DNA of 64,000 bases from Escherichia phage DT571/2, in the sequence record NC_047749.1; one strand, written 5' to 3'. Below the pieces are notes generated by a model. It had not been told where the DNA came from. It searched no databases and saw only the letters and a list, made by a program, of their open reading frames with translations. The position numbers were made by a program, and so were the translations under genes. How positions within the stretch are numbered: the first letter of the stretch is position 1; each line of letters opens with the position of its first letter. This document shows, piece by piece, positions 13,205 to 58,528 of the stretch.

Positions 13205-13240
13205 AGCCAGGTTGCTAGTCGACCTGGCTTTTATTTTATT
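13205..13240 (+). terminator. Intrinsic terminator after nrdD
   Basis: AGCCAGGT-loop-ACCTGGCT followed by TTTTATTTTATT. Confidence 0.75.
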
Positions 13241-21733: not shown

Positions 21734-22042
21734 ATGAGCGATCAGGTAAACCAAAACTATGAAGGACACGTTGATGATCAGTCAATCCTTCTATGGGAAA
21801 GAGAAGGGGAACAAATAAGATTGACAGTATCTGAATTTCGTGGGAATCTATACATGGGAATTAGGTATTGGCTCCAGGATATTACTGGAGAATGGTTTCC
21901 AACGAAATCCGGCTTCTCTTTTCCGTACACTCTAGAAACTACTTCACAGCTATTCTATGCTTTTACGCAAATCCTTAGTGAATCTGAGGTTTTACATGAA
22001 GTACAGAAACGAGCTGAAGAACTCAAAGCCAAGAATGCCTAG
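21734..22042 (+). CDS. Hypothetical protein (102 aa)
   Basis: ORF ends inside terminator stem. Confidence 0.6.
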   Translation: MSDQVNQNYEGHVDDQSILLWEREGEQIRLTVSEFRGNLYMGIRYWLQDITGEWFPTKSGFSFPYTLETTSQLFYAFTQILSESEVLHEVQKRAEELKAKNA

Positions 22043-22059
22043 TTCTTGGCTTTTTCTTT
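22028..22059 (+). terminator. Intrinsic terminator
   Basis: GCCAAGAA-loop-TTCTTGGC followed by TTTTTCTTT; overlaps stop codon. Confidence 0.75.
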
Positions 22060-22069
22060 ATAAATGTAT

Positions 22070-22098
22070 TTGCTTTCAACTCAGTTTTGTTATATAAT
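22070..22098 (+). promoter_or_regulatory. Sigma70-type promoter TTGCTT-17-TATAAT
   Basis: Hexamers/spacing; directly after terminator. Confidence 0.65.
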
Positions 22099-22127
22099 AT
22101 TTATATAAATTAATGAGAGGATCAATC

Positions 22128-22328
22128 ATGGCAATGACAATAACACTTCCCAAGATTCAAGCAAAACTTAATCTACTTTCCACAGCACGCATTAATTATC
22201 AAGATAACATAGGCACAGTAAATCAAAAGGCGTACAAAGATGCGTTTCTGAAAGAATCTGCTGATTTGATGGATATGGTTACACAATATAATAAAGAACT
22301 CAAGATGGAAATCGCCGATGATGACTAA
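22128..22328 (+). CDS. Small hypothetical protein (66 aa)
   Basis: ATG 7 nt after GAGAGGA; downstream of promoter 22070-22098. Confidence 0.5.
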   Translation: MAMTITLPKIQAKLNLLSTARINYQDNIGTVNQKAYKDAFLKESADLMDMVTQYNKELKMEIADDD

Positions 22329-23292
22329 TGTAAAAGAATTTATTAAACGCTGTCAAGAAGCATATTATCAAGGCATGTCTTTAATCTCTGATGAAGAATA
22401 TGATCGCCTGGTAAAACGCTTCCCGTTAGAGGAAGAGATCGGGCCTAAGGGTGATATTCCACATCTATACCGTATGTATTCTTTACAGAAAGTTTATTAT
22501 AATCGTGGAGATAAACCCCCATTTAACCCGTTAGGTCAAGTAGAAACTGATAAGTTAGATGGTTGTGCAATTTCCCTGCTATATATTAATGGCGAATTTG
22601 TTCAAGCACTAACTCGTGGTAATGGTATTCTGGGAAATGATGTCACAAGCAACGTAAGATTGCTGAACATCCCTAAAAAGATTTCTCAAAAAGTACCTAC
22701 TCAAATCACTGGTGAAGTTCTAATTACAAAAGAAGTAGAAAATAAACGTAACTTTGCCTCTGGTGCTATTAACCTCAAAGATAGTGATGATTTCGTACAG
22801 CGTATCGGGGAAGGTGGTTTAATCTTCGTTGCATACGGTATCCAGTGTTCTGCTGAATCTGTAGGTATTACAGAAGCGTATTTAAAAGATATGCTTTGGC
22901 TAGAGAATGAGAACTTCTTAACAGTTGTTAATGTACGTTCCTTCTTTAAATGGATTCCAACGGACGGTAAAGTTGTTCGTATTAATGATAACAACAAATT
23001 CTTCCGTGAAGGCTGGACTAATAAATTTCCTCGCGGTGCATTTGCTATTAAAGAGGATGAAGAAGGTGAGACTACAACTCTTACTAAAGTTGAATGGAAT
23101 GTAGGGGCTTCTGGTAAAGTAACTCCAGTCGGTTATTTTGAACCAGTAATTATTGATGATGCTACAATTGTTAAAGCGACTCTTAATAACGTTGATTATA
23201 TTAACTCTCTCGATCTAGAGATCGGTTGCCAGATTCGAGTGATTCGTGCTGGTGGTGTAATCCCGTGCATAGTAGAACGAGTATACGATTAA
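22318..23292 (+). CDS. ligA: NAD-dependent DNA ligase, N-terminal part (adenylation + OB domains)
   Basis: Adenylation KxDG motif in TDKLDGCAISLLY; 324 aa; separate downstream ORF carries Zn-finger/HhH/BRCT part. Confidence 0.88.
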   Translation: MMTNVKEFIKRCQEAYYQGMSLISDEEYDRLVKRFPLEEEIGPKGDIPHLYRMYSLQKVYYNRGDKPPFNPLGQVETDKLDGCAISLLYINGEFVQALTRGNGILGNDVTSNVRLLNIPKKISQKVPTQITGEVLITKEVENKRNFASGAINLKDSDDFVQRIGEGGLIFVAYGIQCSAESVGITEAYLKDMLWLENENFLTVVNVRSFFKWIPTDGKVVRINDNNKFFREGWTNKFPRGAFAIKEDEEGETTTLTKVEWNVGASGKVTPVGYFEPVIIDDATIVKATLNNVDYINSLDLEIGCQIRVIRAGGVIPCIVERVYD

Positions 23293-23342
23293 TACATAAC
23301 CCTTTGCTACCCATTTACCATATCGGAATTATAAAGTGGTTA

Positions 23343-23371
23343 TTGACATTTTCGCCGCTTAGGTATATACT
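23343..23371 (+). promoter_or_regulatory. Near-consensus sigma70 promoter TTGACA-17-TATACT between ligA and ligB
   Basis: Hexamers/spacing. Confidence 0.6.
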
Positions 23372-23435
23372 ATTATCATTCAGTTGAGGGATAGAAAGTT
23401 ATGGCGAGGGTAAGCAAAGTTAGTTAAAATTGTAG

Positions 23436-23464
23436 TTGCTAAATGCTTAAATACTTGCTATAAT
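23436..23464 (+). promoter_or_regulatory. Sigma70-type promoter TTGCTA-17-TATAAT upstream of ligB
   Basis: Hexamers/spacing. Confidence 0.65.
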
Positions 23465-23494
23465 ATTTATATAAATTGATAAGGAAGAAATTTG

Positions 23495-24274
23495 ATGAAA
23501 ATCGAAATTCCAACACAATGTCCCTCTTGTGGTTCTAAGCTAGATCTTGTCAACGGACAATTATTCTGTCGTAATAAGTCCAACTGTCCAGCGCAATCAA
23601 GTAAGTTAATTGAGAACTTCTGTACAAAAATGAAGTTAAAGGGCTTTGGCCCGAAAACTATTGAGAAGCTGGAGCTGACGAAGATTTCAGAACTATTTTA
23701 CCTAACCGAAGAAGATTTGGTTAGAGCCGTGGGTAGCAAGGTTGCCGCTAAGTTAATTAGCGAATTAAATACTAAAGTTCGCGGAGACATTGACTTTGGT
23801 TCAGTTCTCGGTTCTTTAGGAATCCCTCTAATTGGAGAGGTTGCAGCAAAGAAATTATCCCAAAATTGCACTAGCTTCCACGATGTGAAGGCTGACGGCA
23901 AGGCTGGAGAAAACTATAAAGCCTGGCTAAATTCCCCACAAGGCAAGGATGTTATCGAATTACCGTGGAAATTCTCAAATGGTATTAAAGGTGCTAAAGC
24001 TGACATCATCATTACAGATGAATTAGTTGCCCCGCCAAATGGAATCACGGTGTGTATTACCGGATCTTTGCAAGATTTTGCAAATCGAACGGATGCAACA
24101 AACTATCTAGAAGGTCTAGGGTATACTGTTAAAAAATCAGTTACCAAAGACGTTAAATACCTCATCTGTGAGGATGAATCTAAGCGTTCTTCCTCATCTT
24201 ATAAGAAAGCCGAAACGAATGGGATAGAAATCCTGTCGATTAAAGAACTATTGGAGAAAAATAATAATGTCTAA
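23495..24274 (+). CDS. ligB: NAD-dependent DNA ligase, C-terminal part (Zn finger, HhH, BRCT)
   Basis: CPSCGSKLDL...CRNKSNCPAQ Zn ribbon; BRCT-like C-terminus; ATG with AAGGAAG RBS. Confidence 0.88.
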   Translation: MKIEIPTQCPSCGSKLDLVNGQLFCRNKSNCPAQSSKLIENFCTKMKLKGFGPKTIEKLELTKISELFYLTEEDLVRAVGSKVAAKLISELNTKVRGDIDFGSVLGSLGIPLIGEVAAKKLSQNCTSFHDVKADGKAGENYKAWLNSPQGKDVIELPWKFSNGIKGAKADIIITDELVAPPNGITVCITGSLQDFANRTDATNYLEGLGYTVKKSVTKDVKYLICEDESKRSSSSYKKAETNGIEILSIKELLEKNNNV

Positions 24275-58016: not shown

Positions 58017-58528
58017 TATACTCTCCTGTAAACTTCAATAATAGTACGAATATGCTCTGGAATACCAGACTTAGTATTATTAAAAGTAACTGTTTCTCCG
58101 CCAATTGTTTTAGCTTGACGGTAATCCTGTTTATGCCAGTGATCTACTAACATACATGCTGCAAGTTTGAGATCTTCAGGAATTGGGTTAAATCCACCTT
58201 GTGTGTACTCTACATCCATATAACCTTCTGGGGGACTAAATTTAAGAAGTATAACCCCATCAGAGTATAACTTATACTGTTCGGGATCTATCTCCTTATC
58301 ATTAATAGTCATTTTAGTTACTGAAGTAGCTGAGGGAGAACTTAAAAAGTATTTTTTACGAGTAGGTTTTGTATTGATTAACTGGTCTACCGCATCAGCA
58401 TCATCCATACCTAAAAGGCTAGTAATCAGCGCATTGGCAGCAGTAATCATCATCTCTACTCCAGATTCTAGTTCAGGTCGTTTTAAACCACCGTATAATC
58501 TATAGTCTTCAGCTGTGATGATTTGCAT
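58016..58528 (-). CDS. Head completion/adaptor protein (T5 p144-like)
   Basis: 170 aa; immediately downstream of major capsid gene. Confidence 0.55.
   Translation of the reverse strand: MQIITAEDYRLYGGLKRPELESGVEMMITAANALITSLLGMDDADAVDQLINTKPTRKKYFLSSPSATSVTKMTINDKEIDPEQYKLYSDGVILLKFSPPEGYMDVEYTQGGFNPIPEDLKLAACMLVDHWHKQDYRQAKTIGGETVTFNNTKSGIPEHIRTIIEVYRRV

Follow-up and report, generated by a model that had tools for sequence, protein, structure and literature searches.

The window, a stretch of 64,000 nt from Escherichia phage DT571/2 (NC_047749.1), is 99.1% identical to Escherichia phage DT57C and belongs to a T5-like phage. It features an NAD-dependent DNA ligase encoded by two plus-strand genes, ligA (22318..23292, 324 aa) and ligB (23495..24274), that are separated by a spacer (23293..23494). 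The spacer is 202 nt long when counted to the ATG of ligB and 199 nt when counted to a TTG at 23492, has a G+C content of 31%, and is 99.5% identical to T5 in this region. The first-pass annotation had assigned the adenylation and OB part of the enzyme to one ORF and the Zn-finger, HhH, and BRCT part to the other, and had likened the arrangement to the ligA/ligB split of T5. The ORF list, Pfam, and the alignment agree on this division, and the likeness to T5 is correct: in the records of both T5 and DT57C, ligA and ligB are given as subunits A and B. The ligase subunits of T5 are also listed as ligA and ligB in the literature (PMC3632103). T5-like phages are known to have this two-subunit, NAD-dependent ligase, and the pair is ordinary for the family.

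Subunit A covers residues 1-393 of E. coli LigA in the alignment. Pfam detects DNA_ligase_aden in this ORF (2e-23, 83.5 bits vs a cut-off of 27) and DNA_ligase_OB at residues 252-322 (6e-22, 77.7 bits vs a cut-off of 32.9). The adenylation motif KLDG at residues 79-82, which includes the lysine K79, aligns with K115-G118 of E. coli LigA, and motifs III, IV, and V are present. In LigA enzymes the Tyr and Asp residues of domain Ia bind NMN and make the enzyme NAD+-specific, and the domain Ia stretch EAYY..ISDEEYDRL of the phage protein pairs with EYLYH..IPDAEYDRL of E. coli (Y22, D32, Y35, and D36). The protein shares 99.4% identity with T5 LigA; translation from a second ATG, at 22321, would give the 323-aa form found in T5. 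Upstream of ligA there is a terminator-like hairpin (22025..22053), followed by a plus-strand T5-type promoter (22070..22098, TTGCTT-17-TATAAT) and a small ORF (22113/22134..22328). The -10 element of this promoter and the sequence downstream of it, 19 nt in all (22093-22111), are identical to those of the promoter nearest to ligB. The upstream promoter should serve both the small ORF and ligA. T5 lacks the extra ~190 bp upstream of ligA together with the small ORF 22134..22328, whereas the window, DT57C, and SPC35 have both.

Subunit B covers residues 400-671 of E. coli LigA and is 97.7% identical to T5 LigB. The BRCT domain is recognized by Pfam (1e-8, 35.4 bits vs a cut-off of 21.3). The HhH domain falls under the curated Pfam cut-off, yet it aligns to E. 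coli LigA residues 430-529, and this region is shorter in the phage than in the E. coli enzyme. The Zn finger is formed by C9, C12, C25, and C31, which match the E. coli Zn-finger cysteines, of which C408, C411, and C426 were position-checked. The mechanical start call for ligB, which is also the start annotated in public records, is TTG 23492. Translation more likely starts at the ATG at 23495, which has the Shine-Dalgarno sequence AAGGAAG (23481..23487, plus strand) 7 nt upstream of it; additionally, chain B of PDB entry 9HU3 (9hu3_B) begins at the Met equivalent to this ATG (MKIQIPT). For annotators, ATG 23495 is a better choice than the TTG. The end of ligB overlaps the start of the D5 gene (24267) by 8 nt.

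The first-pass annotation had proposed alignment with single-chain LigA enzymes as a way of defining the break point, and this alignment fixes it at residue level. ORF1 ends at the position of S393 of E. coli LigA and ORF2 begins at R400, so that the break lies in the linker between the OB domain and the Zn finger, and no domain or catalytic motif is missing there. LigA-family enzymes carry all of their domains on one polypeptide; here the domains are divided by the ligA stop codon (23290-23292) and then by the 202-nt spacer, and separate polypeptides are the defining trait of the T5-type variant. All three frames of the spacer are closed, with 5-7 stop codons per frame, and the frame of ligB is +1 relative to that of ligA, so a single-base sequencing error cannot explain the split.

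The spacer features two sigma-70 promoters on the plus strand, and both had been read from the sequence in the first-pass annotation. The distal promoter, P-K28b (23343..23371), is TTGACA-17-TATACT and matches the consensus at 11 of 12 positions. The proximal promoter, P-K28a (23436..23464), is TTGCTA-17-TATAAT and matches at 10 of 12 positions, with an extended -10 TG at 23456-57 (TGcTATAAT). They are the sole plus-strand promoter matches in 3.7 kb, and the chance of finding two sites with at least 10 of 12 matches on one strand of 202 nt is p ~0.009 with the composition of the spacer or 0.0007 with that of the region. The T5 record AY692264 annotates promoters P-K 28b and P-K 28a (features 58311-58385 and 58404-58478). 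The consensus scores, the chance test, and the T5 annotation bear out both promoters. The sequence of P-K28b is identical in T5 and 8sent65, and the block from the distal -35 element to the ligB ATG is the same base for base in T5 and in the window. Transcription would start at ~23378 from P-K28b and at ~23471 from P-K28a. The two T5 promoters are reportedly active with E. coli RNA polymerase (Gentz and Bujard, J Bacteriol 1985). Going by that study and by the names that the T5 record gives them, P-K28b and P-K28a of the window are probably active as well.

A promoter precedes ligB in every lineage inspected, and the tandem pair is found in the cultured genera compared. In all lineages with the pair, the distal -10 element is located 116-133 nt and the proximal -10 element ~30-41 nt before ligB. 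P-K28a has zero variable columns among 26 T5-like loci, and the promoter block has a pi of ~0.005, the lowest in 3.5 kb, vs 0.10-0.18 at third codon positions among close relatives. The kept spacing and the near-invariant sequence, along with some stability of the leader fold (z -3.7 here and -4.2 in My1), fit a reading in which the ~160-nt tandem-promoter block is a regulatory module of its own, beyond the two promoters; this reading is regarded as rather unlikely. If it were true, a structured leader RNA or an operator that covers the proximal -35 element, for example, could allow the module to control how much subunit B is made relative to subunit A, or when the replication operon is expressed, and the ancient split would stem from insertion of a promoter into the LigA linker.

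Several other features of the spacer were considered. The possible 8-codon mini-ORF of the first-pass annotation (23401..23427, plus strand, MARVSKVS*) does exist and has GAGGGA (23386-23391) 9 nt upstream; however, it is not conserved, as the ATG is gone or the frame is shortened in Klebsiella, Pectobacterium, Proteus, Vibrio, and Aeromonas phages. In the window, T5 early promoters are usually followed by a GAGG-like motif, and the apparent Shine-Dalgarno sequence is an instance of this general G-rich element. A role as a leader peptide was rejected on both grounds, and the mini-ORF is probably not a gene. A conserved leader RNA structure was not supported: against shuffled sequences the fold scored z -3.68 in the window and -4.2 in My1, but only -0.6 to -1.8 in five other genera, and RNAalifold gave no consensus pair for the leader. 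An inverted repeat over the proximal -35 element, a candidate operator or hairpin, appeared by eye to be conserved with compensating changes, but it was inconsistent in an ungapped-stem test. Compared with 1000 shuffles, the repeat is notable only in My1 (1/1000), in one Vibrio lineage (22/1000), and in Proteus (34/1000), and it is unremarkable in the window (467/1000) and six others. A terminator-like site after ligA was not found in the spacer (fold z -0.59).

The split is found in every Demerecviridae genus inspected, and ligA and ligB are annotated as separate genes in several hundred Demerecviridae records. The order ligA, gap, ligB, D5 is that of T5, DT57C, PR1, My1, IME260, pVp-1, and AhSzq-1. 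Among IMG/VR loci that encode a LigB relative, all 53 of 53 are split and 0 are fused, there are no premature stops, and the spacers range from 69 to 1374 nt. Comparison of these lineages shows the split and a promoter before ligB to be ancestral to the whole family. Nucleotide diversity at the first, second, and third codon positions is.046/.025/.184 for ligA and.029/.012/.104 for ligB, which indicates purifying selection on both genes. The catalytic and Zn-binding residues are all retained down to 41-45% identity. In relatives the gap between ligA and ligB is a recurrent insertion site that holds small ORFs, a GIY-YIG endonuclease, or a NADAR gene, and it is a repeated landing site for accessory and mobile genes. 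The first-pass annotation had allowed that the spacer might be an insertion remnant. This idea did not hold for the window, where the 5' part of the spacer contains no recognizable inserted gene, though the gap does carry inserted genes in relatives; Pfam gave no match for the small ORFs of the relatives.

The closest comparison is with T5 itself (T5p114/T5p115, AY692264), which shares the genes, their order, the break point, the 202-nt spacer, and the promoters with the window. Providencia phage vB_PreS_PR1 has orthologues of both subunits, and their chain boundaries coincide with those of the window; its spacer is ~190 nt long, and its two tandem promoters are at matching distances from ligB. 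The PR1 subunits are only ~56% identical in amino acid sequence to those of the window, and PR1 has an annotated terminator after ligA, whereas none is detectable in the window. An orthologous two-chain enzyme is found in PDB entries 9HU3/9I5I, with a chain A of 339 aa (E 6e-103) that is 100% identical to the PR1 protein and a chain B of 248 aa named 'DNA ligase subunit B' (E 2e-79). The ends of both chains match the ORF ends of the window. E. coli LigA (PDB 2OWO) has the same Ia-NTase-OB-Zn-HhH-BRCT series of domains and the same catalytic and Zn-binding residues; however, it is one chain of 671 aa, the phage enzyme consists of 324 + 259 aa, and the identity is ~30%. Relative to E. coli LigA, the phage ligase lacks linker residues 394-399 and has shortened Ia-NTase and HhH regions. 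The locus matters little as a discovery, since the T5 record already annotates the divided ligase as well as its two promoters, and the orthologous enzyme has been deposited in the PDB.

These features make it very probable that the two ORFs encode subunits A and B of the T5-type NAD+-dependent ligase, in which a LigA-family gene is split at the linker that joins the OB domain to the Zn finger and gives two chains that are translated separately and associate non-covalently. Subunit A, with domain Ia, the nucleotidyltransferase domain, and the OB domain, would supply all of the residues for the reaction with NAD+ and for nick sealing, and subunit B, with the Zn finger, HhH, and BRCT domains, would be the DNA-binding half of the LigA clamp. 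After separate translation, the non-covalent association of A and B would give the active enzyme. In T5-like phages both subunits are said to be necessary for nick sealing (PMC4319617). The literature that was searched held no biochemical data on LigA and LigB of T5 or DT57C. That the two chains form one active enzyme is suggested by the joint deposition of the PR1 orthologues in 9HU3/9I5I (chains A and B), and a heterodimer would form and be active in DT571/2. The T5-type ligase is thought to take part in replication and to seal the nicks of the T5 genome. The 202-nt gap would be a functional promoter region, from which transcripts of the early promoters P-K28b and P-K28a would enter ligB, the overlapping D5 gene, and then the helicase and primase genes. 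Transcription of ligA would come from the promoter further upstream, and read-through from ligA presumably also reaches ligB.

Three other explanations of the locus were weighed against the two-subunit enzyme. The halves could be largely independent, with A acting as a self-sufficient minimal ligase and B as a separate DNA-binding protein or BRCT scaffold of the replication operon, so that the heterodimer is not the functional unit in vivo. Truncated Ia-NTase-OB fragments of LigA are capable of self-adenylylation, ligB has two strong promoters of its own and is translationally linked to D5 and not to ligA, and the distance between ligA and ligB reaches 1.4 kb in some relatives, with several genes in between. 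However, most of the DNA binding of LigA comes from HhH, so that fragments without the Zn-HhH part are poor at nick sealing, the two genes are neighbours in an unchanged order in all lineages seen, and both chains are found together in a PDB entry, which leaves independence of the halves an improbable reading. Decay of the ligase gene, with the phage depending on host LigA, is harder still to credit. It would account for the stop codon, the change of frame, and the 200 nt without coding function within what is a single gene in bacteria, but both ORFs are intact in the 53 loci as well as in the several hundred phage records, the codon-position diversity points to purifying selection on each, the residues of the active and Zn sites are all retained even at 41-45% identity, and the orthologous pair has been produced and its structure solved.

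A comparably negligible chance is given to a single product, whether the halves are rejoined by means of an intron or intein or by ribosomal bypassing or frameshifting, or the split is an assembly error, for which only the adjacency of the two halves speaks. The spacer has no Rfam match at E<=1, to an intron or any other RNA family, and no intein-like sequence was found flanking the junction. The stops in each spacer frame, the two promoters that occupy the spacer, and its widely varying length in relatives, with unrelated genes inside, also argue against rejoining, and the ORF boundaries are where chain A of the PDB structure ends and chain B starts. The first-pass annotation had named an assembly error, to be revealed by resequencing, as what would undo the split; the identical split in several hundred independently sequenced and assembled genomes excludes it.

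The name ligB is also used for an E. coli gene, a paralogue of ligA. E. coli LigB is a single-chain, full-length ligase paralogue (PMC5507437). Phage ligB, by contrast, encodes the C-terminal half of an enzyme of the LigA type; it has its name and its place in the NAD+ ligase family in common with E. coli LigB, and nothing more. The shared name is coincidental and may mislead annotation, as phage ligB does not correspond to that paralogue.

The locus corresponds to a known feature, the T5-type two-subunit NAD+-dependent DNA ligase; the gap between its genes holds P-K28b and P-K28a, both catalogued promoters. The two ligase halves are encoded by separate ORFs on the same strand, located as the first-pass annotation had placed them, and the ORF list and the Pfam domains agree. 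ORF1 (ligA, 22318..23292, plus strand) encodes 324 aa; translation from a second ATG, at 22321, would yield 323 aa, the length annotated in T5. Its Pfam matches are the adenylation domain (83.5 bits) and OB fold (77.7 bits) of NAD ligases. ORF2 (ligB) ends at 24274 and features a BRCT domain (35.4 bits) and HhH matches below threshold. Its mechanical start is TTG 23492, as in the public T5 and DT57C records. A start at ATG 23495 is favoured by the spacing of a Shine-Dalgarno sequence, AAGGAAG (23481-23487, plus strand), 7 nt before it and by the N-terminus of a solved orthologue, PDB chain 9hu3_B, whose first residue is the counterpart of this ATG. Counted to this ATG, the spacer is 202 nt on the plus strand with 31% G+C. 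It contains 5-7 stop codons per frame, and the reading frame of ligB is shifted by +1 from that of ligA; therefore the split is not a one-base error and read-through is impossible. The next gene downstream, D5, starts at ATG 24267 and shares its first 8 nt (24267-24274) with the 3' end of ligB, which suggests that ligB may be translationally coupled to D5, with ligA and ligB uncoupled.

The resemblance to T5 proposed in the first-pass annotation is borne out by the T5 record AY692264, which matches the spacer region at 99.5% identity and annotates ligA (T5p114), ligB (T5p115) and two intervening regulatory features, "promoter P-K 28b" and "promoter P-K 28a". LigA and LigB share 99.4% and 97.7% identity, respectively, with their T5 counterparts, which are named as ligase subunits in the open literature (PMC3632103). 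Over the 2.4-kb region, Escherichia phage DT57C is 99.1% identical and several hundred Tequintavirus and Epseptimavirus genomes are 90-96% identical. The two-gene ligase with P-K28b and P-K28a is thus already known, and only the residue-level break point, the conservation of the promoter arrangement across the family and the variable cargo of the ligA-ligB gap are mildly new. Records named Listeria phage LM 4-11-1 (4.8 kb) and Campylobacter phages A148 and C13 contain a 95-98% identical T5-type ligase; these may be mislabelled or contaminated deposits rather than evidence of true hosts.

Alignment of both ORFs with single-chain E. coli LigA (from NC_000913) defines the break point. The last residue of ORF1 aligns at S393 and the first residue of ORF2 at R400, which places the break in the short linker that connects the OB fold to the Zn finger and leaves out only about six of its residues. 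The alignment shows that ORF1 keeps the domain Ia Tyr/Asp residues (EAYY..ISDEEYDRL), KLDG (K79, corresponding to E. coli K115), the NTase motifs GEV, DG..(K/R) and A.K, and the OB fold motif RAGG.IP. All four Zn-finger cysteines are kept in ORF2, with C9 and C12 corresponding to E. coli C408 and C411. Compared with E. coli LigA, the phage protein is compact: sequence is missing between Ia and NTase, and the HhH region is shorter. The parts required for chemistry and DNA clamping are all retained, only shared out over two chains. The top PDB matches of the two proteins are chains A and B within the same entries, 9HU3 and 9I5I, namely "DNA ligase (NAD(+))" (339 aa, E 6e-103) and "DNA ligase subunit B" (248 aa, E 2e-79), and the termini of these chains match the ends of ORF1 and ORF2. 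The sequence of chain A is that of the ligase gene in vB_PreS_PR1 (100% identity), a T5-like Providencia phage whose genome, like the window, features ligA, a gap of ~190 nt and ligB; its ligase is ~56% identical to the window proteins. The co-deposition of these orthologues argues that the two chains would form a complex and an active enzyme.

A split gene could also reflect decay to a pseudogene, an assembly error or halves that are re-joined into one chain. Using tblastn, LigB relatives of 42-99% identity are found in Escherichia, Salmonella, Klebsiella, Pectobacterium, Proteus, Providencia, Vibrio and Aeromonas phages, and every inspected record among them belongs to Demerecviridae. Outside this family, LigB matches have 25-28% identity; those in the rows inspected lie within single annotated ligase genes, for the most part from phages with very large genomes. 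An IMG/VR scan recovered 53 loci, all with a separate ligA upstream of ligB and spacers of 69-1374 nt; none contains a fused ligase, and none has a premature stop in ligB. Across 18 colinear T5-like loci, ligA has nucleotide diversities of.046/.025/.184 and ligB of.029/.012/.104 at codon positions 1/2/3, a signature of purifying selection on both. The universal split, the lack of premature stops in these loci and the purifying selection thereby exclude all three alternatives for practical purposes.

The promoter scan recovers both spacer promoters claimed in the first-pass annotation, which are also those of the T5 record. The distal promoter, P-K28b (TTGACA-17-TATACT, 23343..23371, plus strand), scores 11/12, and the proximal promoter, P-K28a (TTGCTA-17-TATAAT, 23436..23464, plus strand), scores 10/12 with the TG of an extended -10; they are the sole plus-strand matches within 3.7 kb. 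Simulated sequence gives ~0.14 sites (spacer composition) or ~0.04 sites (regional composition) per 202 nt per strand, and therefore p is ~0.009 or ~0.0007 for two sites on the coding strand. The P-K28 names reportedly go back to a collection of T5 promoters by Gentz and Bujard (1985). Near-identical T5-type early promoters, with an A-rich tract, TTGCTx, 17 nt, TATAAT and then ATAAATTTGAGAGGAG-like sequence, occur across the whole window, for example at 13240, 16220, 19859, 20885 and 32029 (plus strand) and at 479, 1827, 3771, 7493 and 11070 (minus strand). A minus-strand site at ~3379-3430 matches the classic T5 promoter P-H207. Between a PC4-like gene and ligA (22070-22328), ~190 bp missing from T5 include another such promoter (TTGCTT-17-TATAAT, 22070-22098), whose -10 and 19 nt downstream are identical to P-K28a, and a small "SPC35_0106"-like ORF (22134..22328) whose last 11 nt overlap the start of ligA and which has no Pfam match.

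Comparison of the spacer among T5-like genomes revealed at least one strong promoter directly before ligB in every lineage. The tandem pair recurs with similar geometry in the cultured genera: the distal promoter is TTGAC(A/G)-17-TATA(C/A)T, and 116-133 nt separate the end of its -10 from the ligB start; the proximal promoter combines a TTGC-type -35 with TGnTATAAT and ends ~30-41 nt before the same start. The remotest metagenomic lineages (41-46% LigB identity) have a single promoter in a 69-107-nt spacer, and one remote lineage has a single promoter in a 460-nt spacer that holds a 137-aa ORF. In T5, the window and Salmonella phage 8sent65, every base between a point upstream of the distal -35 and the ligB ATG is the same. 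Across 18-26 T5-like loci, the tandem-promoter block with the first ~40 nt of ligB (23335-23535) is the most conserved part of 3.5 kb: pi is 0.003-0.006 in five successive 40-nt windows, compared with 0.10-0.18 for third codon positions. Among close relatives, no column of the proximal promoter varies, and conservation extends beyond the hexamers to the 64-nt stretch between the promoters. The simplest reading is that the block holds two full-length promoter contact regions (~-55 to +20 each, 93 nt apart), which would nearly fill it and so leave little unconstrained sequence.

Tests for spacer functions other than promoters were negative or inconsistent. The spacer has no Rfam match, and the leader has no consensus RNA structure across relatives. 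The RNA predicted to start at the distal promoter (23378-23500) folds better than shuffled controls in the window (z -3.68), as does the leader of Pectobacterium phage My1 (L008:1688-1779, z -4.2), where the 3' arm of a 12-bp stem is the proximal -35; the z-scores are significant only in these two and not in five other genera. The proximal -35 is spanned by an inverted repeat that does better than shuffled sequence in only 3/11 lineages, the window not among them. The 8-codon mini-ORF proposed earlier, MARVSKVS*, is present at 23401..23427 (plus strand) but is not conserved among relatives, and its apparent Shine-Dalgarno, the G-rich GAGGGA at 23386-23391, also trails many other T5-type promoters in the window.

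The suggestion that the window's spacer is an insertion remnant is unsupported; however, relatives bear real cargo in the same gap. In these phages, the DNA from the ligA stop up to the promoter block is a recurrent insertion site for unrelated cargo. This cargo includes several unrelated 55-126-aa ORFs, such as a 64-aa ORF in Salmonella phage 8sent65 (L003:1286-1480) and a 55-60-aa ORF in Proteus phages, and one to three ORFs in Vibrio-phage-like loci (L042/L043/L046), among them a weakly DprA-like 186-230-aa protein. Two further ligase loci contain a GIY-YIG homing-endonuclease-like gene (L035:784-1440, Pfam 1e-5) and, in a Proteus-phage-like locus, a NADAR-domain gene (L055:753-1409, Pfam 2e-31).
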